Virus record (IMG/VR): IMGVR_UViG_2778261502_000004
Location: 1 to 16,989 of that record
DNA from: a virus
Taxonomy: Duplodnaviria; Heunggongvirae; Uroviricota; Caudoviricetes
Reading direction: 5' to 3' (one strand)
Length of the DNA stretch: 16,989 bases
Shown here: one piece after another, positions 1 through 16,989 of the stretch
Numbering within the stretch: position 1 is the first letter of the stretch
Layout: each line of letters begins with the position of its first letter
Notes under the pieces: generated by a model
What the model was told of the DNA's origin: nothing
Databases searched by the model: none
What the model saw: only the letters and a program-made list of their open reading frames with translations
Translations under genes and position numbers: made by a program

Positions 1-489
1 TCAAATCAAGCATCGCACTCTGAAGCAAGTAGCCATCTGCCTGCTTCCTTTGATCTGCGAGAAGTTTGTGGCAGTGATCACCAATCCCCCCTGTGCGCGA
101 GCAGCTTTCAGTCCAGCTTTTGTTCGTTCAACAATCAGTTCACGCTCCATTTCAGCCAGGGCACCCATCACATGAAAGAAAAAGCGTCCCATTGAGGTAC
201 TGGTATCAATTGAATCCGTCAGACTACGAAAGTTGATGCCTCGTTCGCGCAACTCCTCCACCAGCACGACAAGATGCCGCATACTGCGCCCCAGCCGATC
301 CAGCTTCCAGACAACCAGAGTGTCACCTTCCGATAATGTCCTGAGCAGTTTTTTCAATCCCGGCCTTTCGGACTTTATACCGCTTATCTTGTCTTCAAAA
401 ATCAGCTCGCATCCTGCACAGTTCAGCGCATTACGTTGTAGATCTGTGTTCTGGTCATTTGTTGACACACGTACATAGCCAATAAGCAT
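1..489 (-). CDS. pin: Serine recombinase / DNA invertase (Pin-Gin-Cin-Hin family); catalytic domain intact, C-terminal tail does not look like the usual HTH DNA-binding domain (possible frameshifted pseudogene)
   Basis: ORF 1..525(-); real start likely ATG at 489 (MLIGYVRVSTNDQNTDLQ, catalytic Ser in VRVSTNDQ) with GGGAG 7 nt upstream; last ~28 residues (GLVITATNFSQIKGSRQMATCFRVRCLI) differ from the conserved GRIGGRRPKL...STLYK tail; stop at 1..3. Confidence 0.8.
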   Translation of the reverse strand: MLIGYVRVSTNDQNTDLQRNALNCAGCELIFEDKISGIKSERPGLKKLLRTLSEGDTLVVWKLDRLGRSMRHLVVLVEELRERGINFRSLTDSIDTSTSMGRFFFHVMGALAEMERELIVERTKAGLKAARAQGGLVITATNFSQIKGSRQMATCFRVRCLI

Positions 490-543
490 GGTAGATCTCC
501 CTGACAAAAGCAGGGATGATGCCATTTGCTCGTTATTTCTACA

Positions 544-569
544 TTTTCATAAACGTTGGTTTGGGAGAA
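544..569. repeat. Candidate invertase crossover site (pix/gix/cix-like), left boundary of invertible segment
   Basis: TTTTCATAAACGTTGGTTTGGGAGAA with core AAACG-TT-GGTTT; inverted copy of the site at 2114..2139; the central dinucleotide is complementary between the two sites as inversion requires. Confidence 0.6.
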
Positions 570-914
570 GCGGCGAAAAGGGATGTGGGCACAGGAGATA
601 ATCAGATACCGGATATGGGAGCATTCGCTTCTGGTTCGGGATGGTTCAGGCTACCAGGTGGATATATTGTTCAGTTTGGCACTTTTTCAGGAAACACGAC
701 CCGCTTTATCAGTGGACACTTCCCTATACCATTCCCTAATCAGCCGATGGTTTCAGTCAGTGTTATGTCTGATGCCGTTCAGTCAGACCCGTCGAATCCT
801 GCCCCGCAGGTTTTGTCTGTAAATTTTGAACATATCAGTAATTCAGCGTGGCGTGTGGCAACCAGTGATATCTCACAGCAATACAGATTCAGTTATATTT
901 CGATAGGATGGTAG
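570..914 (+). other. Start-less alternative tail-fibre C-terminal cassette (Sv'), expressed only after inversion
   Basis: ORF 516..914(+) opens with [24 protein letters not shown], the same junction peptide found inside the tail-fibre gene ([24 protein letters not shown]), then an unrelated C-terminus; no credible own start or RBS. Confidence 0.65.
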
Positions 915-916
915 AA

Positions 917-1357
917 ATGCAGAAATATATTTTCAGTGCCGATAAAAATGCGTTTTTCCCTGTGGAGCTTAAAATCGCTTATCAGGAATCCGGCGAATGG
1001 CCCGATGATGGAATCGAAATTGACGACACTGTTGCCGCCGAATTTATGAAGGAAGCACCAGAAGGAAAATACAGAGGCGTCATCGACGGAATGCCTGCAT
1101 GGATTGATATTCCACCGCCAACTCACGAGGAACAAATTGCCGCAGCCGAACTGGAAAAGCAGCAATTGATTGATCAGGTCAACGAATACATAAACAGTAA
1201 GCAATGGCCTGGTAAAGCGGCGATTGGTCGCCTGAAAGGTGAGGAACTGGCGCAATATAATTTGTGGCTGGATTATCTGGATGCACTGGAATTGGTAGAT
1301 ACTTCCAGTGCTCCAGATATTGAATGGCCTATACCTCCGGGGGGACAGGCCAGTTAA
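917..1357 (+). CDS. Tail fibre assembly protein (Tfa/U-like), partner of the alternative fibre cassette
   Basis: MQKYIFSADKNAFFP...GMPAWIDIPPPT...WPIPPGG, typical Tfa family features; AGGA 8 nt upstream of ATG 917; converges on the second tfa. Confidence 0.8.
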   Translation: MQKYIFSADKNAFFPVELKIAYQESGEWPDDGIEIDDTVAAEFMKEAPEGKYRGVIDGMPAWIDIPPPTHEEQIAAAELEKQQLIDQVNEYINSKQWPGKAAIGRLKGEELAQYNLWLDYLDALELVDTSSAPDIEWPIPPGGQAS

Positions 1358-1754
1358 TATTCTCTGGGTCGGTTGTCACATCAGTCGCCTTAATATCATT
1401 CTTATACGTCAGCCACGCCGACAGTTTTGCTCTGTTGGCGTCGCTAATTTCTCCCAGCATCAACTCTGTACGCCAGTCGAGCATCACATCATCAGCATGA
1501 GACAGTAGTTGCTGGCGTTTATTTTCTGCGACCTGAACTAACTCTTCTTTTGTTGGAGGGGGAATATCAGCCCAGGCTGGCATTCCATTCACGCTGGAGA
1601 GAATTTTCCCCTGCGGCCATACACCACCGTATTCCGCTCTTACGGTATCGCTGATTGCAACGGCATCTGATAAATCCCAGCCAGCATCGATATATTCCTG
1701 CATTAGGGACTCGGGAAAAAATGACAGGTTTGCGGGAGACCATAAAAATTCCAT
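1329..1754 (-). CDS. Tail fibre assembly protein (Tfa/U-like), partner of the currently expressed fibre
   Basis: MEFLWSPANLSFFPE...GMPAWADIPPPTKEE...NWPVPPEV; lies immediately downstream of the fibre gene on the same strand. Confidence 0.85.
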   Translation of the reverse strand: MEFLWSPANLSFFPESLMQEYIDAGWDLSDAVAISDTVRAEYGGVWPQGKILSSVNGMPAWADIPPPTKEELVQVAENKRQQLLSHADDVMLDWRTELMLGEISDANRAKLSAWLTYKNDIKATDVTTDPENINWPVPPEV

Positions 1755-1756
1755 AA

Positions 1757-2416
1757 TTAACGCCCTATTGAATACACCATTACATCCAGTGAGCTGGATG
1801 TATATGTACTGGTTGCAAGAAATGAAGAAAGATTGTTATTGGATGCACTGACAAATGGACTCGCCGCCACGTTAATGGTGCGGCTTTCAGTGTTGGCCCA
1901 TGAGCCAATAACCGTTGATGTGAACGGGATTAAATAGTTTGCTGATACTGTAGCCCCTGTAGTACCAGATGCTGCAGGAATACTTACTCTTTTCCACTGC
2001 AACATCCAGTTCTGAGGAAACCGTACATATCCTCCATTCAGTTCATTCCTGAATTCAAAACTACCCATATCCGGGATCTGATTTCCCCCTGTGCCCACAT
2101 CCCGTTTTGCCGCCTCTCCCAAACCAAGGTTTTCGAGAGCCGTTTTCACCGTGCCATCCGCTTTGATATCGCCAAACGGATTTTTGCGGCTTAACAGCAG
2201 CGCACGAAGCGCGGTAAGCAGCTGGTCGTGCCGCGCCTTCTCGAGACTGGCACCGGATGCCTCCACAACGCTGCAAAGCTCCTCCTGCAACATGTCAAAG
2301 TAGTCATCATCCAGATCGGTGGCAGGCGTGCCAGTCTGGGGGTTACCACGGGTAAAACCGTTTTTACCCGCGCCGAACTTATCCTTCTGCGCGGTTTTCG
2401 TGTCTATACGATGCAT
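1757..2416 (-). CDS. Side tail fibre protein (Mu S / e14 Stf-like): conserved N-terminal part joined to a variable C-terminal receptor-binding part
   Basis: 219 aa; N-terminus [47 protein letters not shown] is the conserved tail-fibre N-terminus as I recall it; the crossover site lies inside the gene at the [12 protein letters not shown] codons. Confidence 0.85.
2114..2139. repeat. Candidate invertase crossover site (pix/gix/cix-like) inside the tail-fibre gene, right boundary of invertible segment
   Basis: CTCTCCCAAACCAAGGTTTTCGAGAG with palindromic core AAACC-AA-GGTTT; ~60 bp of inverted homology with 556..616 follows on the inside of the segment. Confidence 0.65.
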
Positions 2417-2419
2417 GGA

Positions 2420-3004
2420 TTACTCCGGATATTTAAAAATTACGTAGGTATGCGACGGGCAGAGTTTGTTAAGCACGCACTCGACAACGGTGTCCCCCCA
2501 GATACGCAGTGCGGAATCACAGGGATCGCCACATGTCATCCAGGTGGTGTTGGTGGCGGCTGGCATGTTGATCTGCCAGTAATACCGCCATTCAGGCGCG
2601 TTCACAGCGTCAGTACAGGCCGATGAGCAGGTGAACGTGCTTTTGTCGTATCGCGTGATGGTGGCATCTGGTCTGCCCAGGGCAGCAAGCTGTGCAAGAT
2701 AAAAATCCTCGTTGATGCCGCCCGCCAGGTTAACCTTCGCATCCAGCCGTTGCTGACGCTGGCGAAGGGTCTGTGTCCCTGCGGGAATACATTCATCCGG
2801 CAGACCGCACAGACGCTCCCAGCGGTTTATCAGTTCAGTGGTGGTGCGCGGATCCAGCTCCCGCATCAGGGCATCCGCACGCTGATGAACGCGGGTTAAT
2901 GACGGTGCCGCACCGGCAATCGCCGGATCGCTGGCTGACCACGCCGGACCGGGGGGCAACAGTGCCGACAACAGACGGATGTAATCATCGTTTGTCACGT
3001 CCAT
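2420..3004 (-). CDS. Tail/baseplate protein of the YmfQ / Mu gp48 type (DUF2313-like)
   Basis: 194 aa [24 protein letters not shown]...[13 protein letters not shown]; sits directly upstream of the tail-fibre gene as ymfQ does in e14; recognised from memory, not aligned. Confidence 0.75.
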
Positions 3005-3140
3005 GAAATCGTCCCCAGTACCGCCAGTTCATTTTTTGCAATGGAGATATTGTCTGCCGGTGCAAGCAACTGATGGCTGTATTCCCCGTTCGCACCGGAA
3101 ATCGCCTCACTGATACGCGATACCTTCAGTTCTCCCTGCG
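2995..3140 (-). pseudogene. C-terminal remnant of the gene that normally precedes ymfQ (baseplate J-like by synteny)
   Basis: Open frame ...[46 protein letters not shown], stop overlapping the ymfQ-like start (ATGGACGTGA); no start codon; about 48 codons only. Confidence 0.3.
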
Positions 3141-3269
3141 GATATAGGGTTTGTCGCGGTTCGGGTATTCATGTGTTTCCACACGGCGACCGGTTCCCGC
3201 ACTTTCTTCTTCAACCTTAAACGGCACGCCGCGAAATGACGCGTCCTGAAGCCTGTCTTTCCACGTCAT
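3126..3269 (-). pseudogene. N-terminal remnant of a Mu N-like DNA-circularisation / tail protein, cut off after 47 codons
   Basis: MTWKDRLQDASFRGVPFKVEEESAGTGRRVETHEYPNRDKPYIRREN* with GGAG RBS; the SFRGVPF...GRR..HEYP.RD.PY motif matches the N-terminus of this family as I recall it; expected position after the tape measure in Mu-like order. Confidence 0.5.
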
Positions 3270-3285
3270 ATATACTCCGAAAATT

Positions 3286-3310
3286 AAAAAGCCACCTATT
3301 AGAAGGTGGC
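3286..3310 (-). terminator. Rho-independent terminator downstream of the 176-aa gene
   Basis: GCCACCT-TATTAGA-AGGTGGC hairpin; on the minus strand it is followed by TTTTT. Confidence 0.7.
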
Positions 3311-3330
3311 CTTGTAATGAATTTTATTAA

Positions 3331-3861
3331 TTAGCGAGTCAGAAACAACGAATCTTTATACTTTTGCTGTTGTTCATTTAAATACTTAGCTGTTTCATCG
3401 CTGGCAAATGGAAATATTACCGTATTTTTAGGCATGGTAATTTCTTTTTTGTCCAGCGTCAGAGTAAACATAGGAACATACTGAGCAGAGTAACGCACCG
3501 CAGAAACGAGCTCTAGTTTAGACTCTTCAATAACACTTAAATTATCCAGGCTAACTTTCTCTTCATCTTTTTTCTTTGACGCATTTAAAGTTTTTATTAC
3601 TTTATTTAATTTCTCCTGAAAATCCTCCTTAAAGTTTTCAGGATTGCCGTCGACAACAAGAATCTGTTCACCCTGATTATCTGGAAAAATAATCTTTGCA
3701 CTTATCAATTTATTTTCTTTATAAACATCACCAAGTTTTATGGCTCCTCCAGATAACTGAATAATATGTTCATCTTTAAAGGAGATGTTGCCAGAGATTA
3801 TGAGAGATGAAAAAATAGCCGCTGCTCCAAGAATTACACTTGCTGTGATATAGCCTTTCAT
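3331..3861 (-). CDS. Hypothetical membrane-anchored or secreted protein encoded by an AT-rich insertion
   Basis: 176 aa; hydrophobic N-terminus MKGYITASVILGAAAIFSSLIISG then a Lys/Glu/Asp-rich domain; visibly AT-rich between GC-rich tail genes; own terminator. Confidence 0.6.
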   Translation of the reverse strand: MKGYITASVILGAAAIFSSLIISGNISFKDEHIIQLSGGAIKLGDVYKENKLISAKIIFPDNQGEQILVVDGNPENFKEDFQEKLNKVIKTLNASKKKDEEKVSLDNLSVIEESKLELVSAVRYSAQYVPMFTLTLDKKEITMPKNTVIFPFASDETAKYLNEQQQKYKDSLFLTR

Positions 3862-6196: not shown

Positions 6197-6552
6197 TACT
6201 GGTAATCCCCTTCTTCACCGTGGAACTCAAGATCGACCGTGCCTTCTTCGGCATTATGGTTCGCTTCGCCGTGCAGCCAGGCAGACGACAGTACATAGAC
6301 CTGACCGTTCGCCAGCTCGGCAGTGATGGTCATCTCATCAGACGAGGTGATTTTGCTCACCGGAAAATTCTTCGGCACCTTGAAGGTCCCTTTGACATAG
6401 GGCGCACGGTGAGTTTCCTTGCGGTCCACTGAACCGTCCAGGCCGATGATGTCATCATTGACCGTCCTGTTCATGGGCACCTCAATGCCGCCGGTCAGCG
6501 ATAGCTGCTGACCGTCAATTTTGAAATAACAGGTTCCCCCGATACGGGCCAT
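6196..6552 (-). CDS. Phage tail tube protein (Mu M-like)
   Basis: 118 aa MARIGGTCYFKIDGQQLSLTGG...; TAATG overlap with the sheath stop; sheath-tube-chaperone-tape measure order. Confidence 0.7.
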   Translation of the reverse strand: MARIGGTCYFKIDGQQLSLTGGIEVPMNRTVNDDIIGLDGSVDRKETHRAPYVKGTFKVPKNFPVSKITSSDEMTITAELANGQVYVLSSAWLHGEANHNAEEGTVDLEFHGEEGDYQ

Positions 6553-7457
6553 TATGCAGACTCCTCTGAATACTGAAGACGGAACTGGTTAACCAAGGCA
6601 AAGACACGCAACTGGTTAACATAGTCAGGCGGGAACAGCGTGTTCAGGCGGTTCGGATCGCTGGCATCACGCTCCACAACCAGGTACTGCTTAAACAGTT
6701 CGTAGTTTTCCACGATCCCCGCACGCTCAAGCTGACGGTAGGTTGCCAGCAGTTCCCCTTTGATTACCGCCGGGGTGACAATCGCCTGACCGGGACCAAA
6801 GCGGGTACCGTCGCTGGCAAGCTTGTGACGCCCGTACTTACTGGTAATGACGGATTTCAGTTTGCGCAGTACATACGCACTGGTATGCAGCGTCTCGCTG
6901 TCGAGGTAGCTGTTATCCGCAACCCCGTAAGCATTTTTCCTGTACGTGGTGACATCACGCTGAATGCGCAGCCCCCCGCTTTCGACATACGCCGTTGCCA
7001 CGCCATGAGACAGCAGGGTCTGCTGCTCGGTCATCGTGAACCGTTTCCCCTTCGGCGCAGGCAGCATACCCACCAGCTCACCGGTCTGCGTGGGACGTGC
7101 CGGATCGTTGCGGATAAACACCGCTGCGCGGGCGGTACGGCTTGCCGCCAGCTCGTCGGCAGGCGTCTGGGTCTCTTTTTCGTACCCCGCCAGGGTGATG
7201 TGCTGCTGGTTAAACTGGTCACCTGCGTTCACCAGTTCTGACAGTGTGCCGGTCTTTGCCGTATACACATGACCATACAGCTGACGCGCATAGCTCCAGC
7301 GACCGCTGGTATCGTTCATCTCGGTCACTGTCCCACTTCGAACCGTAGCCGCGCTGATGACGGGATTGTCCTGGTTTGTATTGCTTCCAGCCTTCGCTTT
7401 TGTGGCTTTCGCAGTAGCCTGACGGGTCTGTGGTTGTAGAGCGGCAGCCGCGAACAC
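6552..7457 (-). CDS. Contractile tail sheath protein, 5'-truncated; the upstream part of this ORF is probably out-of-frame read-through from an HNH gene remnant
   Basis: 301-aa ORF with GTG start and no RBS; C-terminal two-thirds sheath-like by synteny and by motifs I recall (RKNAYGVADNSYLD, GQAIVTP, VERDASDPNRLNTLFPPDYVNQ); first ~40 residues are low-complexity Ala/Thr/Lys; sheaths are normally over 370 aa. Confidence 0.6.
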   Translation of the reverse strand: MFAAAALQPQTRQATAKATKAKAGSNTNQDNPVISAATVRSGTVTEMNDTSGRWSYARQLYGHVYTAKTGTLSELVNAGDQFNQQHITLAGYEKETQTPADELAASRTARAAVFIRNDPARPTQTGELVGMLPAPKGKRFTMTEQQTLLSHGVATAYVESGGLRIQRDVTTYRKNAYGVADNSYLDSETLHTSAYVLRKLKSVITSKYGRHKLASDGTRFGPGQAIVTPAVIKGELLATYRQLERAGIVENYELFKQYLVVERDASDPNRLNTLFPPDYVNQLRVFALVNQFRLQYSEESA

Positions 7458-7592: not shown

Positions 7593-8102
7593 TTAACCAA
7601 ATACAATGAATGTTCCAAAAGATGCTAATGATATATTTATCAGAGAATCCATACGAGCCTTAATTTCTGGCGTATCCTCGACCTCAGTACGCCATTGATT
7701 GACTGCCTCAATCATATCTCGACAAAACACATCTATTTGCAACTGAAGTTTGCCATTTAAGTGATTTAAATGCACTTGGCAATTTGGCCTAGGTGGTGGT
7801 GTAAAATTAAACTGCATCATTCTTTTCCTGTTCTCTGGATCCTGTCCAGCATGTAAACAAGAACAACGATACAGCCAAAAATCATCCGCATAAAATCGAC
7901 ACTGTTCATGTGTACCGGATGTATATTTATTTTCAAGATAACGAGAAACCCAATCTTTATACCATTTCCCTGTTTCACCCTTACCTATTTTGGGACGTTC
8001 AACGCTCCTGCAAATATCAGGCATAGCAAGAGCCATAAACAATGCCGCTAACCAATTCTCACTTTCAATTGAAGATTCAATTGATTTTATAAACCTTTCC
8101 AT
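7593..8102 (-). CDS. Hypothetical Cys/His-rich protein encoded by an AT-rich insertion between the lysis cassette and the HNH remnant
   Basis: 169 aa MERFIKSIESSIESENWLAALFMALAMPDICRS...YRCSCLHAG...; visibly AT-rich; no family recognised. Confidence 0.6.
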   Translation of the reverse strand: MERFIKSIESSIESENWLAALFMALAMPDICRSVERPKIGKGETGKWYKDWVSRYLENKYTSGTHEQCRFYADDFWLYRCSCLHAGQDPENRKRMMQFNFTPPPRPNCQVHLNHLNGKLQLQIDVFCRDMIEAVNQWRTEVEDTPEIKARMDSLINISLASFGTFIVFG

Positions 8103-8168
8103 AACTCACCTTTATATTATTTGATGATTATATTTATAGCACAGTTACAATCATTTTCCGGAAAATAT

Positions 8169-8420
8169 TTATTCATTTTGATATCCTATTTTTAGAATAT
8201 CCTTTTTATCTCTATTGCATTGCGCTAATGCAGATAACAAACTCGCATTCAGTTCCAGGCTAGCACCATATGTCAGTGGACTAGGTACAACTGGAATCGG
8301 TGTTTCAGAAGTCAGGCTGGCTGGCAGTGGTACCGCCGGAGTGTTCACGTAAACTGTCCGCGTACTTCCGCAACCGGTCAGCAGCGGCAGCAGGCACAGG
8401 ACGTGAAGCACAATCATCAT
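8169..8420 (-). CDS. Outer-membrane spanin lipoprotein (Rz1-like), overlapping the 3' part of Rz in another frame
   Basis: MMIVLHVLCLLPLLTGCGSTR... with lipobox LLTGC followed by a Pro-rich region; start inside Rz. Confidence 0.65.
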   Translation of the reverse strand: MMIVLHVLCLLPLLTGCGSTRTVYVNTPAVPLPASLTSETPIPVVPSPLTYGASLELNASLLSALAQCNRDKKDILKIGYQNE

Positions 8421-8697
8421 CCGCAACAGCCACTTTGATATCTTCCTGGGTTCTCTGTGACTCCAGTGCAATCTGCTGTTTTGCATGCTGGTTAGCCTCT
8501 ATAACTGTATTGATGATTTGCAGTGATTGCAGAACGTTACGGGTAATGGCAGTTGCTGATTCAGCATTTCGTATAGCCTCATCAACACGCTCCTTTTCGT
8601 GCAGATATTTGCTGTAGTAATGCCCGGCAGACCAGATGAAGGAACCAATGACGGTAACAAAGAAGGCAACAATAACCAGCTTATATCTCAGCTTCAT
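8305..8697 (-). CDS. Inner-membrane spanin (Rz-like)
   Basis: 130 aa with N-terminal transmembrane segment (LVIVAFFVTVIGSFIW) and a coiled-coil-like remainder; start overlaps the endolysin stop. Confidence 0.75.
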   Translation of the reverse strand: MKLRYKLVIVAFFVTVIGSFIWSAGHYYSKYLHEKERVDEAIRNAESATAITRNVLQSLQIINTVIEANQHAKQQIALESQRTQEDIKVAVADDDCASRPVPAAAADRLRKYADSLREHSGGTTASQPDF

Positions 8698-9157
8698 TTA
8701 CTACCCCACCAGCCTCTTTAAACCGGGAAATCAGGTCGCCAATTTTATGTTCATACTGACCGTAACCTGCACCAGGTAACGACGCCCAGATATTGCTGCA
8801 ACGATCGATAGCCTGACGGATATCACCGCGATCAATCATCGGTAAAGCGCCACGCTCTTTAATCTGCTGCAATGCCACAGCGTCCTGGCTTTTCGGAGAG
8901 AAGTCTTTCAGGCCAAGCTGCTTACGATAGGAATCCCACCAACGGGAAAGAAGCTGGTAGCGCCCGGCTGCTGTTGATTTGAGTTTTGGGTTTAGCGTGA
9001 CAAGTTTGCGAGGGTGATCGGAGTAATCAGTAAATAGCTCTCCGCCTACAATGACGTCATAACCATGATTTCTGGTTTTCTGCCGTCCGTTATCCGTTCC
9101 TTCTGACCATGCCACCATATCGAGGAAAGCTTTACGCTGAGGATTAAGATTTTGCAT
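8681..9157 (-). CDS. R: Endolysin, lambda R-type lytic transglycosylase
   Basis: 158 aa MQNLNPQRKAFLDMVAWSEGTDNGRQKTRNHGYDVIVGGELFTDYSDHPRKL..., near-identical to lambda R as I recall it; AGGGGTGA RBS. Confidence 0.93.
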   Translation of the reverse strand: MQNLNPQRKAFLDMVAWSEGTDNGRQKTRNHGYDVIVGGELFTDYSDHPRKLVTLNPKLKSTAAGRYQLLSRWWDSYRKQLGLKDFSPKSQDAVALQQIKERGALPMIDRGDIRQAIDRCSNIWASLPGAGYGQYEHKIGDLISRFKEAGGVVNEAEI

Positions 9158-9311
9158 TTTTCACCCCTGTCAGTCGTTCCCAGAAGTACGTCAGTGCAAC
9201 CGAACCCATTGCACCACTAATCCCCGCTGTCGCGAGAATCATGTAAATACTGAATCCACTTTCGATGCTGATCAGGCCACCAATAACACCGGTGAATCCT
9301 GATATCCGGTC
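9147..9311 (-). pseudogene. Start-less hydrophobic C-terminal remnant, probably of the holin gene
   Basis: Open frame ...SGFTGVIGGLISIESGFSIYMILATAGISGAMGSVALTYFWERLTGVKNAKS* ending in the ATG of R, the position of a holin 3' end; bounded upstream by an in-frame stop, no N-terminal part. Confidence 0.45.
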
Positions 9312-9486
9312 TTAAGTCAGATTTCGTAATTGCACCTGACGTGCATTGCTCAAGTTTTTTAGCCAGCACAAAACTGGCTTTTTTATAGCCATTGAAAACC
9401 AGCCGTAAGTAGCCAGGTGTTGAGCCAACTTTTCCGGCCAACTCGCCCTGCTGTTCTTTGGTTAAAGAGTCCCAATACGCTTTCAT
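9217..9486 (-). CDS. Cro-like HTH regulator (YdaS/Cro family) whose 3' end reads out of frame through the holin remnant
   Basis: Start ATG 9486 with GGAGGT RBS (MKAYWDSLTKEQQGELAGKVGSTPGYLRLVFNGYKKASFVLAKKLEQCTSGAITKSDLRPDI); the last 27 residues (RIHRCYWWPDQHRKW...) are Trp/Arg/His-rich, as expected for the wrong frame of a hydrophobic gene; divergent from cI. Confidence 0.6.
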   Translation of the reverse strand: MKAYWDSLTKEQQGELAGKVGSTPGYLRLVFNGYKKASFVLAKKLEQCTSGAITKSDLRPDIRIHRCYWWPDQHRKWIQYLHDSRDSGD

Positions 9487-13483: not shown

Positions 13484-13836
13484 ATGTTTTCGAAATGGAA
13501 GGGTTTCTTCGTGGGAGATGTGTACCGCGAGATCTGAAAGTAAATGAAACAGATGCTGAATACCTGGTGCGTAAATTCGATGCGCTTGAAGCTAAATATG
13601 CAGCACAGGAAAACAAAGTAATACCAGTGTCAACTGAACTGCCACCAGCAAATGAAAGTGTTTTGTTATTCGATGCTAACGGAGAAGGCTGGCTAATTGG
13701 CTGGCGTTCTCTCTGGTACACCTGGGGACAAAAAGAAACCGGAGAATGGCAGTGGACATTTCAGGTCGGGGACCTTGAAAACGTCAATATCACTCACTGG
13801 GCAGTAATGCCAAAAGCACCGGAGGCTGGAGCATAA
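13474..13836 (+). CDS. yfdS: DUF551-type prophage protein (YfdS-like)
   Basis: 120 aa; C-terminal ...LLFDANGEGWLIGW...ITHWAVMPKAPE pattern typical of DUF551; start overlaps the yfdR-like stop. Confidence 0.7.
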   Translation: MRMNVFEMEGFLRGRCVPRDLKVNETDAEYLVRKFDALEAKYAAQENKVIPVSTELPPANESVLLFDANGEGWLIGWRSLWYTWGQKETGEWQWTFQVGDLENVNITHWAVMPKAPEAGA

Positions 13837-14141: not shown

Positions 14142-14491
14142 TGGAGCCATACAGCCTCACACTCGATGAGGCCTGTCATTTTCTCAAGATATCCAGACCG
14201 ACTGCCATTAACTGGATACGCACAGGGCGTCTTCAGGCAACACGCAAAGATCCCACTAAGAATAAATCTCCTTACCTCACAACACGACAAGCCTGCATTG
14301 CGGCTCTTCAGTCTCCGCTGCATACTGTCCAGGTGAGCGCGGGTGATGGCATAACAGAGGAAAGAAAATGTCACTCTTCCGCAGAGGTGAAATATGGTAC
14401 GCCAGTTTCACATTGCCGAACGGTAAAAGATTTAAACAGTCTCTTGGAACAAAGGACAAAAGGCAGGCGACAGAACTCCATGACAAGCTAA
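14141..14491 (+). CDS. xis: Excisionase (P22 Xis-like)
   Basis: Start ATG 14141 (AGGTGA RBS; TAATG overlap with the previous gene), 116 aa [33 protein letters not shown]...; 3' end overlaps the integrase start by ~124 bp. Confidence 0.8.
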
Positions 14492-15531
14492 AGGCTGAAG
14501 CATGGCGGGTCAGCAAACTTGGTGAAATACCTGATATAACGTTCGAGGAAGCGTGTGTCAGGTGGCTTGAAGAGAAAGCACATAAAAAATCACTGGACGA
14601 TGACAAAAGCCGGATCGGATTCTGGCTTCAACATTTCGCAGGAATGCAACTAAGAGACATTACTGAATCAAAAATTTATTCAGCAATGCAGAAAATGACG
14701 AACCGGCGTCATGAGGAAAACTGGAAACTCAGGGCAGAAGCATGCAGAAAAAAAGGGAAACCTGTTCCAGAATACACGCCAAAACCAGCGTCCGTTGCAA
14801 CGAAGGCTACGCATCTTTCATTTATAAAGGCCCTACTAAGAGCCGCAGAGCGTGAATGGAAAATGCTGGATAAGGCACCAATTATTAAAGTGCCCCAACC
14901 AAAGAATAAACGGATCCGCTGGCTGGAGCCCCATGAAGCACAAAGGCTGATTGATGAATGTCCGGAGCCATTAAAGTCTGTTGTTGAATTTGCACTGGCA
15001 ACAGGCCTAAGACGCTCGAACATCATCAACCTTGAATGGCAACAAATAGATATGCAGCGCCGGGTGGCATGGATAAACCCGGAAGAGAGTAAATCAAACC
15101 GCGCAATTGGCGTTGCGCTGAATGATACTGCATGTCGCGTATTGAAAAAACAAATCGGGAATCATCACCGTTGGGTATTTGTGTACAAGGAAAGCTGTAC
15201 CAAACCAGACGGAACGAAAGCGCCAACAGTCAGGAAGATGCGGTATGACGCAAACACAGCCTGGAAAGCGGCGCTGAGACGGGCTGGTATTGATGATTTC
15301 AGATTTCACGACTTGAGACACACCTGGGCAAGTTGGCTGGTTCAAGCCGGAGTCCCGTTGTCAGTGTTACAGGAAATGGGAGGCTGGGAGTCTATCGAAA
15401 TGGTTCGTCGATATGCTCACCTTGCACCTAATCACCTTACCGAACACGCACGGCAAATAGACTCGATCCTAAACCCATCGGTCCCAAATTTGTCCCAGTC
15501 AAAAAATAAGGAAGGTACTAATGATGTGTAA
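14368..15531 (+). CDS. int: Tyrosine-recombinase integrase of the P22 / SfV family
   Basis: 387 aa [24 protein letters not shown]...; C-terminal [10 protein letters not shown]...VRRYAHL carries the catalytic His/Arg/Tyr context; ends 15 bp from the tRNA 3' end. Confidence 0.93.
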
Positions 15532-15545
15532 CTTATTGATTTAAA

Positions 15546-15621
15546 TGGTGCCGATAATAGGAGTCGAACCTACGACCTTCGCATTACGAATGCGCTGCTC
15601 TACCAACTGAGCTATATCGGC
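15546..15621 (-). tRNA. thrW: tRNA-Thr (anticodon CGU), the attachment tRNA
   Basis: Reverse complement reads GCCGATATAGCTCAGTTGGTAGAGCAGCGCATTCGTAATGCGAAGGTCGTAGGTTCGACTCCTATTATCGGCACCA, 76 nt with CCA end and anticodon loop CATTCGTAATG. Confidence 0.97.
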
Positions 15622-15735
15622 CCTGAAAGGACATGTTCACGAACGTGAATCACGGTGGACAAGGTTAAAACTAACCGGGCGATGCGTCAATGGCCTTGTG
15701 AATCAAATGGCTACTTTTGCATCACCCGGTTTTAT

Positions 15736-16989
15736 TTACGCACGAATGGTGTAATCACCAATGCCGATCCACTTGTAAGTGGTCAGTGCTTCCAGCCCCA
15801 TTGGGCCACGCGCGTGGAGTTTTTGTGTGCTTACCGCCACTTCCGCACCCAGACCAAACTGGCCGCCGTCGGTAAAACGCGTAGAGGCGTTAACGTAAAC
15901 AGCGGACGAATCCACTTCGTTAACAAAACGCTGGGCGTTGCGCATATCGCGGGTCAGGATCGCATCGGAGTGTTGTGTGCCGTGTTCACGAATATGGGCG
16001 ATGGCATCGTCAAGATCGCTGACGATTTTGACGTTCAAATCTAATGACAGAAACTCATCGTCATACTCTTCGGCTTTAACAGCAACCACCTTCGCAGGGC
16101 CTGCCTGCAACTGCGCCAGTGCAGCTGCATCTGCGTGTAATGTCACGCCGCTTTCCGCCATTTGTTTGCTTAATGCGGGCAGGAAGCTATCGGCGATGTT
16201 TTTATTCACCAGCAACGTTTCAACCGTATTACATGTGCTCGGACGCTGAGTTTTCGCGTTGACGATCACTTTTAATGCTTCAGCGATCTCTACACTTTCA
16301 TCAACGTAAATATGGCATACGCCTATACCACCTGTGATCACCGGGATTGTCGACTGTTCACGGCACAGTTTATGCAAACCAGCGCCACCACGCGGGATCA
16401 GCATGTCGATGTATTTATCCATACGCAGCATTTCACTGACCAGCGCACGGTCAGGATTATCAATCGCCTGCACGGCACCCGCCGGTAAGCCGCAGGATTT
16501 CAGGGCGTCCTGAATCACCGCCACCGTTGCAGCGTTAGTGCGACACGTTTCTTTGCCACCGCGCAGGATCACCGCATTACCGGTTTTCAGGCACAGCGAA
16601 GCGACATCAACCGTCACGTTCGGGCGCGCTTCATAAATCACGCCAATAACCCCCAGCGGTACGCGACGACGCTCAAGACGCAGGCCGCTGTCCAGTACGC
16701 CGCCATCGATTACCTGCCCCACCGGATCGGCGAGGTTGCACACCTGACGTACATCGTCGGCAATGCCTTTCAGCCGTGCGGGCGTCAGTGCCAGACGGTC
16801 AAGCATCGCTTCGCTAAGGCCATTGGCTCGCGCGTCAGCAACATCCTGGGCGTTAGCGTTGAGGATGATTTCGCTTTGTGCTTCCAGTTCATCGGCGATT
16901 TTTTCCAGCACGCGATTTTTTTCGCGGCTGGAGAGTTGCGCTAATTTATACGAGGCTTGCTTCGCGGCAATGCCCATTTGTTCCAGCAT
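15736..16989 (-). CDS. proA: Gamma-glutamyl phosphate reductase (proline biosynthesis)
   Basis: Complete 417-aa ORF starting exactly at the window end ([27 protein letters not shown]...); recognised as E. coli ProA; adjacent to thrW as in E. coli. Confidence 0.97.

Follow-up and report, generated by a model that had tools for sequence, protein, structure and literature searches.

A Pin/e14-type invertible tail-fibre segment, very probably orphaned, in a cryptic thrW prophage of Escherichia coli

Can a tail-fibre switch still operate, and still alter the host range of a phage, when the prophage that carries it has decayed? One such switch, known since the 1980s, is the Pin/pix P segment, whose inversion exchanges the tips of tail fibres. 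A locus resembling it lies in the window studied here (the whole stretch of DNA that was analysed, 16,989 nucleotides), which belongs to a prophage integrated at thrW in an E. coli host. A preliminary description had taken this locus for a complete G/P-type host-range cassette. Our analysis supports a G/P-type (Din) invertible tail-fibre segment, as its crossover sites are those of e14 and both orientations occur in relatives, but supports neither its completeness nor a role in host range. Instead, we conclude that the segment is very likely an orphaned e14-type relic in a cryptic prophage, unable to flip by itself or to change the host range of any virion, which a Din invertase supplied in trans could still flip. 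Features and coordinates are collected in Table 1.

Table 1. Features of the invertible segment and its flanks, in window coordinates.
Feature	Position	Strand	Basis or remark
Pin-family serine DNA invertase pseudogene	1-489	-	Pfam Resolvase N-terminal domain only, E=2e-50, residues 3-135
Candidate recombinational enhancer, 5' part of invertase gene	405-467	.	Two degenerate Fis-consensus 15-mers
132-aa ORF (external leader + tip A), invertase-proximal "silent" position	516-914	+	ORF list, translation
Leader of the 132-aa ORF	516-557	+	MMPFARYFYIFINV, outside the segment
pixR-type crossover site	544-569	-	26/26 to published pixR (PMC3241671 Table 3) and K-12 e14
Tip cassette A	558-914	+	Pfam Gp53-like_C, PF21882, E=2.7e-9
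tfaA, tail-fibre assembly chaperone for tip A	917(908)-1357	+	Pfam Caudo_TAP, E=6e-35; PHROG 188
tfaB, tail-fibre assembly chaperone for tip B	1329-1754	-	Pfam Caudo_TAP, E=5e-27; PHROG 188
Tip cassette B, variable C-terminal part of fibre gene	1757-2125	-	Translation; PHROG 2557 and 1396
Whole fibre gene as now assembled (constant part + tip B), 219 aa	1757-2416	-	
pixL-type crossover site	2114-2139	+	25/26 to published e14 pixL (PMC3241671 Table 3)
Constant fibre N-terminus, about 96 aa, outside the segment	2128-2416	-	96% identical to K-12 StfP (YcfK) N-terminus
YmfQ / Mu gp48-like baseplate protein, upstream of fibre gene	2420-3004	-	Pfam Phage_Mu_Gp48, E=3e-26
Scar of a deletion of about 4.1 kb	3005-3269	-	blastn against intact relative L001

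The two crossover sites read TTTTCATAAACGTTGGTTTGGGAGAA next to the invertase gene and CTCTCCCAAACCAAGGTTTTCGAGAG within the fibre gene, at the boundary between its constant and variable parts. Written on its own strand, the former becomes TTCTCCCAAACC AA CGTTTATGAAAA (minus) and the latter CTCTCCCAAACC AA GGTTTTCGAGAG (plus). When one is reverse-complemented, they agree at 20 of 26 positions and are therefore in inverted orientation, with central dinucleotides TT (556-557) and AA (2126-2127), that is, AA on the strand proper to each. This dinucleotide is shared by pix, cix and hix, whereas that of gix is GA (PMC3241671). Comparison with the published pix references (PMC3241671 Table 3) gave the matches listed in Table 1, the K-12 e14 counterpart of the pixR-type site lying at positions 6606-6631 of L002. 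The same C-variant of the pixL-type site was found in three relatives with intact invertases (L016, L018 and L019). The inverted 26-bp sites with matching central dinucleotides described earlier thus stand, and the comparison with gix, cix and pix proposed at that time identifies them as e14 pix sites, hence as similar to known Din crossover sites.

The two 26-bp sites constitute the inner ends of a longer inverted repeat of 69 nt (551-619 and 2064-2132, 88% complementary) that runs into conserved coding sequence, so that part of the similarity reflects protein-coding homology. The repeat might thus have arisen by chance, or be nothing but the shared coding sequence of paralogous tips, with no function in recombination. 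We rule out this explanation, whose probability we consider negligible, on three grounds. The identity to experimentally defined pix sites extends to half-sites beyond the coding homology; when up to 3 mismatches are allowed, the pixL 26-mer has one match where 0.00 are expected by chance, and the dix consensus pattern matches exactly the two sites against 0.10 expected; and relatives carry the segment in different orientations, the breakpoints coinciding exactly with the sites.

Measured between the centres of the two crossover sites, the segment is 1570 bp long. It contains two sets of a fibre tip and a Tfa chaperone, while the constant N-terminus of the fibre, which is common to thousands of fibres carrying different tips, is located outside. 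As had been proposed, the two tfa genes are convergent, with a 29-nt overlap of their 3' ends, and lie between two different tips. TfaB is 34% identical to TfaA, and tip B shares only 47% identity with tip A over 70 aa. The translations also bear out the junction peptide common to both tips, which ends in (D/G)NQIPDMG(A/S)F. While tip A belongs to a Pfam family, a Pfam scan returned no match for tip B; a profile search related tip B to AP22 gp53 (4MTM, E=4e-5) and to the R1 pyocin fibre (6CXB, E=3e-4). A scan of six proteins against NCBIfam yielded only sub-threshold serine-recombinase families for the invertase and no match for the other five.

Inversion carried out in silico placed tip A in frame behind the constant N-terminus, and the resulting ORF runs uninterrupted for 215 aa, in support of the proposal that the plus-strand cassette joins the constant part upon inversion. 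That cassette had also been described as lacking a start, which is correct within the segment; outside it, an in-frame ATG (516/519) opens the 132-aa ORF, which adjoins the invertase gene and consists of an StfE-like leader followed by a gp53-like end. PGAP names the product of this ORF "gp53-like domain-containing protein" in relatives, and the exact protein is recorded in 5 contigs. Judged from its sequence, the segment belongs to the Pin/e14 type of Din-family invertible tail-fibre segments, with different tips. In relatives, each gene of this locus already has a PGAP annotation.

We modelled both C-terminal domains, as the preliminary description had suggested. The models, each of a single chain, reach moderate confidence, with mean pLDDT of 61 and 69 and values of about 80-88 in the tips (~80 for tip A, 80-88 for tip B). 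In Foldseek searches, the best fold matches of tip A were R1/R2 pyocin fibre C-terminal domains, and tip B matched 6CL6, 6CL5, 6CT8, 6CXB and 4MTM (probability 1.00, E between 1e-6 and 8e-4 for both tips, at 15-22% sequence identity). Both tips are thus predicted to adopt the C-terminal beta-sandwich fold of R-pyocin fibres (6CL5, 6CL6, 6CT8, 6CXB) and of gp53 of the Acinetobacter phage AP22 (4MTM), a likeness that extends to the sequence-profile match despite only 15-22% identity to these proteins, and both would presumably bind receptors.

The closest known system is the P segment of K-12 e14 and its invertase Pin (pixL, pixR; stfP-tfaP-tfaE-stfE-pinE), which shares with our locus the pix sites, the 29-nt convergent tfa overlap, the external leader ORF and the gene order ymfQ, constant part plus tip, tfa, tfa', tip' and invertase. 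Identity is high outside the segment, with 96% for the constant N-terminus, 96% for ymfQ and 96.8% for nt 1-401 of the invertase gene (both at the nucleotide level). In contrast, the variable cassettes are not those of K-12 (StfP/TfaP and StfE/TfaE). Both tips and both chaperones differ; leaving aside the constant part and junction peptide, TfaA alone resembles its K-12 counterpart (TfaP, 54% identity), and both tips are gp53-like here whereas e14 StfE is not. Furthermore, the e14 segment is longer (1797 bp), e14 is integrated at icd rather than thrW, and its pinE is active whereas the invertase gene here is a pseudogene. The G segment of Mu (Gin) and the C segment of P1 (Cin) follow the same plan, with a constant fibre N-terminus outside, two tip and chaperone sets inside (constant S, with Sv-U and U'-Sv'), 26-bp sites of the dix consensus, and a Din invertase and enhancer adjoining the segment. 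In a profile search, the constant part of our locus weakly matched protein S of the Mu tail fibre (5YVQ/8JU3, E ~0.05). Yet Mu gix has GA instead of AA at its centre, and compared with Mu and P1, the fibres encoded here are much shorter (~215-219 aa) and their tips unrelated in sequence. Finally, a truncated 162-aa invertase that differs by one residue is recorded in ~80 contigs as "DNA invertase from prophage CP-933H", which points to CP-933H-type E. coli remnants by annotation name only.

The earlier claim of a complete, functional switch finds no support in the adjacent invertase gene. Its catalytic domain is intact (codons 1-134, window 89-489), but a 1-nt deletion after codon 134 (nt 401) shifts the frame at window 88/89. 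Nucleotide identity to pinE drops to ~65% beyond the deletion and homology fades by about window 37-47, that is, around nt 450 of 555. Three-frame translation gave a scrambled C-terminus, and neither this translation nor Pfam revealed the HTH DNA-binding domain; the gene caller predicts a product of 162 aa with a Resolvase domain only. By comparison, the intact counterparts in L016, L018 and L019 encode invertases of 184-197 aa with Resolvase and HTH_7 domains and are accompanied by full baseplates. An assembly error is an unlikely source of the deletion, as the same lesion occurs in many independent assemblies. In relatives, PGAP describes this lesion as "frameshifted; incomplete; missing C-terminus", the ~80 contigs named above carry the near-identical truncated product, and the lesion recurs together with an autotransporter neighbour in complete genomes. 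In Hin, the DNA-binding domain is required for hix binding and for contact with Fis (PMC3798978). Because the cognate invertase lacks this domain, the local copy would flip only with another invertase acting in trans.

The 5' part of the same gene contains a candidate recombinational enhancer. Two 15-mers with a degenerate match to the Fis consensus (453-467 and 405-419) have centres 48 bp apart, at ~96 and ~144 bp from that of the nearer crossover site. The Hin enhancer has a similar geometry, with 47 bp between its Fis sites and a distance of ~100 bp to hix (PMC3798978). The interval is 100% identical to the corresponding part of functional K-12 pinE, where the same two motifs occur.

In intact phages of this family, the serine invertase encoded beside the segment binds both 26-bp pix sites, assisted by Fis at an enhancer near the 5' end of the invertase gene itself. 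It then cuts at the central AA/TT dinucleotide and rotates the strands by 180 degrees. Codon Leu97 (LENLGLGE) of the constant N-terminus is thereby connected in frame to the other tip, which brings along its Tfa chaperone. The parts acting in cis are intact here, namely both sites, tips and chaperones and probably the enhancer, with tip B as the one presently joined.

The prophage itself has decayed as well. Window positions 2115-3144 correspond to 8379-9408 of the intact relative L001, whereas 3143-3257 correspond to 13555-13669 (blastn). At this scar, the 3' end of the baseplate J gene (to 3144) joins a 47-codon stub of a DNA-circularization gene (3126-3269; DNA_circ_N, 47 aa). Baseplate genes have thus been deleted; the sheath gene is truncated, and we found no head or packaging genes in the prophage. 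The prophage is defective, as the scar shows, and with these losses neither tip can be used by any virion, so that the term "host-range" cassette does not apply. A simple promoter scan gave counts at chance level, with none found for the fibre operon or the 132-aa ORF, and a terminator-like hairpin (3288-3313) lies upstream of the fibre operon.

Is the switch nonetheless kept active by an invertase encoded elsewhere? Another Din invertase of the PinE, PinQ, PinR or Fin type could flip the segment in trans and maintain a mixed population. Din invertases are known to cross-react, the e14 P segment being a substrate of PinQ, PinR and PinE alike and the H segment one of Fin (PMC12529663). The match of the sites to e14 pix and the identity of the enhancer region to pinE favour such trans action. 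Furthermore, E. coli genomes with matches to this region have them at 2 places in the median and at 10 at most, and the Logan contig L004 ends inside the pin gene, as expected if the genome had a second pin copy.

The orientation of the segment in relatives bears on the same question. Among complete E. coli genomes, tip A was fused to the constant part in 19 and invertase-proximal in 116. In a P2-like prophage (L022), the region 553-2132 aligns at 93.4% over 1580 bp but is inverted relative to the invertase gene, with collinearity breaking exactly at the two crossover sites. B-type tips (at least 90% identity) likewise exist both as 219-aa fused fibres and as leader-plus-B ORFs of 135/136 aa. 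Both orientations thus occur in the family and among close alleles, contrary to the absence of inversion in related genomes that would have counted against the preliminary description. In contrast, the assemblies with exactly this fibre allele, which number only two, both show the same orientation. An exact-sequence look-up of the two flipped products in a collection of 15 billion proteins found neither, and no complete E. coli genome carried the flipped tip-B junction beside this pin flank, tip B being present in only 3 of them. For the two assemblies available, the single orientation and the lack of recorded flipped products fit a locked state and argue against a switch active in trans.

One relative, L005, has the same invertase lesion and yet has tip A switched on, which hints at flipping after the lesion. 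However, L005 is mosaic, the 5' part of its pin gene being a different allele (~90% identity), and homologous recombination explains its orientation equally well. We therefore dropped L005 as proof of flipping in trans. Overall, ongoing inversion by a foreign invertase seems to us possible but rather doubtful, and we infer that the segment does not flip at present.

Another explanation is that the segment has been retained by the host. The e14 proteins StfE and StfE2 are reported to be expressed, and StfE2 to block adsorption of T2 (PMC12529663). By analogy, the locus could be a domesticated anti-phage module of the PinQ/StfE2 type, kept because the product of the 132-aa ORF, made by the cell, blocks phage adsorption. 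This ORF is built like e14 StfE2, with a leader (MMPFARYFYIFINVGLGE) that resembles the e14 leader (MPFACYFFIFINVGLGE) and a gp53-like C-terminal domain. Moreover, the leader residues are nearly invariant among 18 homologues, and the ORFs of the two tips and the two chaperones are still intact although the prophage has lost much else. The conservation of the leader is nevertheless largely imposed by the overlapping pix site and invertase 5' region, and intact ORFs may only mean that the decay is recent. The tips are unlike those of K-12, and besides having no promoter above the chance level of the scan, the ORF shows no good ribosome-binding site, as AGGGA abuts its ATG. We consider this explanation improbable.

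More improbable still is a variant in which the host keeps an orphan switch after the loss of its invertase, flipped in trans by invertases of other prophages, whose leader plus gp53-like protein (from ATG 516/519) masks a surface receptor and blocks phages in either orientation. The PinQ/PinR inversion of e14 that yields StfE2 (PMC12529663) offers a precedent, in that a cryptic prophage has a segment between pix sites which is inverted by an enzyme from another locus, and a short leader plus gp53-like ORF adjoins the invertase gene. It differs in that the leader plus gp53-like ORF of our locus exists in either orientation, so that inversion here would change only the tip of the product and not turn it on or off. 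If true, this would be a two-state form of the PinQ/StfE2 defence, with inversion deciding which receptor is masked rather than whether the protein is made.

The orphaned e14-type relic that we favour is of small significance in itself, as an ordinary remnant of a well-known phage DNA switch. It nonetheless provides a clean case of an invertible module whose parts acting in cis outlast its invertase, and its relatives reveal an A/B tip module common to Mu/e14-like and P2-like tails and flipped exactly at pix sites. Since inversion in e14 was reported in 2025 to yield a protein that blocks phage adsorption, orphan segments of the present kind are also worth testing for such an effect.

The segment at 544-2139 is bounded by two 26-bp crossover sites, both located where the preliminary description had placed them. 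The minus strand of the left site is identical to published pixR (TTCTCCCAAACC AA CGTTTATGAAAA, 26/26), and the right site matches published pixL (TTCTCCCAAACC AA GGTTTTCGAGAG) at 25/26 positions (PMC3241671 Table 3); both matches were also confirmed by direct comparison with the K-12 sequence. The central dinucleotides read TT and AA on the plus strand and are the same dinucleotide when the sites are aligned. They form the inner ends of an inverted repeat of 69 nt (551-619 / 2064-2132, 88% complementary). Within the window, a dix-consensus pattern matched at exactly these two sites (0.10 expected), and the pixL 26-mer, with a maximum of 3 mismatches allowed, matched once (0.00 expected). These matches identify the pair as pix sites of e14, a cryptic prophage of E. 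coli K-12, in agreement with the proposed similarity to known Din crossover sites. A second inverted repeat within the segment (1088-1131 / 1543-1586, 44 nt, 77% complementary) was rejected as a third crossover site: it lacks a dix-like core, corresponds to the conserved Tfa motif GMPAW.DIPPPT and is coding homology of the two Tfa chaperones.

Features of the invertible fibre segment and of the surrounding prophage
Feature	Position	Strand	Remarks
Invertase ORF	1-489	-	start MLIGYVRVSTNDQ; Pfam Resolvase, residues 3-135
Left crossover site	544-569		plus-strand reading TTTTCATAAACGTTGGTTTGGGAGAA
Tip A	558-914	+	Pfam Gp53-like_C
tfaA	917-1357	+	Caudo_TAP chaperone gene
tfaB	1329-1754	-	Caudo_TAP chaperone gene
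Tip B	1757-2416	-	C-terminal part of this 219-aa ORF
Right crossover site	2114-2139		plus-strand reading CTCTCCCAAACCAAGGTTTTCGAGAG
Deletion scar	3005-3269		junction 3143/3144; 3' end of baseplate-J gene and 47-codon DNA-circularization gene stub
176-aa ORF	3331-3861	-	hydrophobic N-terminus; PHROG 5485 (unknown function)
Sheath region	6552-7457 and 7593-9157		truncated sheath gene directly after lysis genes and a 169-aa ORF of unknown function
Prophage end	14368-16989		tyrosine integrase 14368-15531, then tRNA-Thr(CGT) 15546-15621 (-), then 417-aa aldehyde-dehydrogenase-family gene

ORFs, translation and Pfam bore out that two convergent tfa genes, which overlap by 29 nt, and two different fibre tips with a shared junction peptide lie between the sites. 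Tip A stands beside the invertase gene and tip B is joined to the constant fibre N-terminus. Past a shared start of 13 residues followed by (D/G)NQIPDMG(A/S)F, the tips are only 47% identical over 70 residues. As had been predicted for the plus-strand cassette, in-silico inversion at the central dinucleotide fused tip A to the constant part in an unbroken 215-aa fibre. Structure models of both tips had good local confidence (pLDDT about 80-88). They are plausibly receptor-binding tips of different specificities, because both were modelled with the same beta-sandwich as the C-terminal ends of R1/R2 pyocin fibres and AP22 gp53.

Among the complete E. coli genomes searched, both orientations were found. 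In 19 genomes the constant part and tip A formed a single uninterrupted stretch of 648 bp (97-98.5% identity), versus 116 with tip A beside the invertase gene as in the window. Prophages whose pinE is intact and whose baseplate module is full are among those with the fused constant-A state. Inversion is seen most clearly in a P2-like prophage (L022, GCA_038757605.1), in which the invertase gene aligns with that of the window in the same direction and the stretch 553-2132 in the opposite one (93.4% over 1580 bp); collinearity therefore breaks exactly at the two sites. In this prophage, a 394-aa P2 H-like fibre (5251-6435 of L022) carries an A-type tip as a fusion, and a B-type tip adjoins the invertase as a 135-aa ORF (P0122). 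B-type tips of at least 90% identity are likewise recorded in two forms in E. coli and Salmonella, as fused fibres of 219 aa and as leader-B ORFs of 135/136 aa. Colinear counterparts of the module are known with intact 184-197-aa invertases (Resolvase and HTH_7) and complete baseplates; one of them, L018, is 94.3% identical over window positions 39-3144. Since inversion is found among relatives and the sites match known Din sites, the core reading as a Din-type invertible fibre segment stands.

B-type tips were also observed on two other, unrelated fibre N-termini (P0009, 217 aa; P0035, 235 aa). Where A- and B-type tips follow unrelated N-termini, they are always joined at the GLGEAAKR peptide, whose codons lie in the crossover site. 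This suggests that the pix region also serves as a place where phages of different types exchange modules.

The mechanism of Din inversion is established for Hin, Gin, Cin and Pin (PMC3798978; PMC3241671). In intact relatives, invertase dimers bound to the two sites would act together with Fis, which binds an enhancer located in the 5' part of the invertase gene. Both strands would be cut at the central dinucleotide, and a 180-degree subunit rotation would then exchange the tip and chaperone behind the constant fibre part. The window's enhancer region shows 100% identity to its pinE counterpart. It contains two degenerate matches to the Fis consensus, 48 bp apart and about 96 bp from the site centre, which form a candidate enhancer in line with the Hin geometry.

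The cassette had been described as complete, which does not hold for its neighbouring invertase gene. The catalytic domain is intact, but compared with pinE one nucleotide is deleted after nt 401 (window 88/89). Identity drops to about 65% over the following 40-50 nt, beyond which homology is lost in AT-rich DNA beside an autotransporter gene. The C-terminal helix-turn-helix domain, which in Hin binds the site and provides the contact with Fis that inversion needs (PMC3798978), is gone, and the invertase is predicted to be dead. The same lesion is labelled "frameshifted; incomplete; missing C-terminus" by PGAP in relatives. The truncated 162-aa product (P0259, P0262) is on record in many contigs, one variant in about 80 under the source name 'DNA invertase from prophage CP-933H', so an assembly error in a single genome is ruled out. 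As complete genomes carry it next to the same autotransporter gene, it is old and inherited.

Because its own invertase is dead, the window copy should be locked in the tip-B state, unless some other Din invertase works on it in trans. We consider such flipping possible rather than probable. Cross-action is documented for PinQ, PinR and PinE on the e14 segment and for Fin on the H segment (PMC12529663), and strain H9Ecoli (L005) has the same lesion and neighbour gene, yet tip A joined. However, L005 carries a different allele in its pin 5' region (about 90% identity), so recombination could account for this orientation equally well. In favour of a locked state, an exact-sequence look-up found no record of the exact flipped products, and the only two assemblies with this exact fibre allele have the same orientation, a sample too small to decide.

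The plus-strand cassette, said to have no start of its own, indeed has none inside the segment, but an in-frame ATG (516/519) between the invertase start and the left site gives a 132-aa ORF of MMPFARYFYIFINVGLGE and tip A, which PGAP annotates in relatives. In e14 it corresponds to StfE, which has the leader MPFACYFFIFINVGLGE. According to a 2025 paper (PMC12529663), PinQ inverts the e14 segment and so gives rise to StfE2 (leader and gp53-like tip), a protein that blocks T2 adsorption. Since the 132-aa ORF has the same build as StfE2, a role in host defence is conceivable, though improbable. Neither a promoter nor a good ribosome-binding site for it was found in the window sequence. A 9.9-kb contig with the exact fibre allele (L004, Logan SRR3957146) ends inside the invertase gene about 90 bp past this ATG, as expected if a second near-identical pin copy in the same genome broke the assembly.

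The prophage, integrated at tRNA-Thr(CGT) with its own integrase, is defective. The attachment site would be thrW, used by CP4-6 in K-12, and we take the adjoining aldehyde-dehydrogenase-family gene to be proA. Relative to intact relatives, about 4.1 kb of baseplate genes are missing at the scar, and the tail sheath gene encodes 301 aa versus 497 aa in the relative L014. Head and packaging genes are lacking between the lysis and tail genes, and no head, portal or terminase genes are present, hence the prophage cannot form particles. The 176-aa ORF is AT-rich (33-34% GC versus about 50% around), and a strong terminator-like hairpin (3313-3288) follows it immediately before the fibre operon. This stretch (3288-3861) resembles a moron-type insertion that separates the tape-measure gene from the operon. 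Owing to these defects, fibre-gene expression is uncertain and no virion can use either tip; the proposed host-range function is thus lost.

The closest known system is the P segment of e14 with Pin. Sites, layout and constant parts are the same, with the gene order YmfQ (Mu gp48-like), fibre constant part and tip, tfa, tfa', tip', invertase. Identity to e14 is about 96-97% in the constant fibre part, in ymfQ and over the first 401 nt of the invertase gene. In contrast, the tips and chaperones differ from the K-12 ones; the integration site and the dead invertase are further differences. Mu G/Gin and P1 C/Cin work by the same logic with other tips, and the central dinucleotide is different too (GA for Gin). 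The segment is a further member of a long-known family, with genes already annotated one by one in related genomes, and its significance is low.
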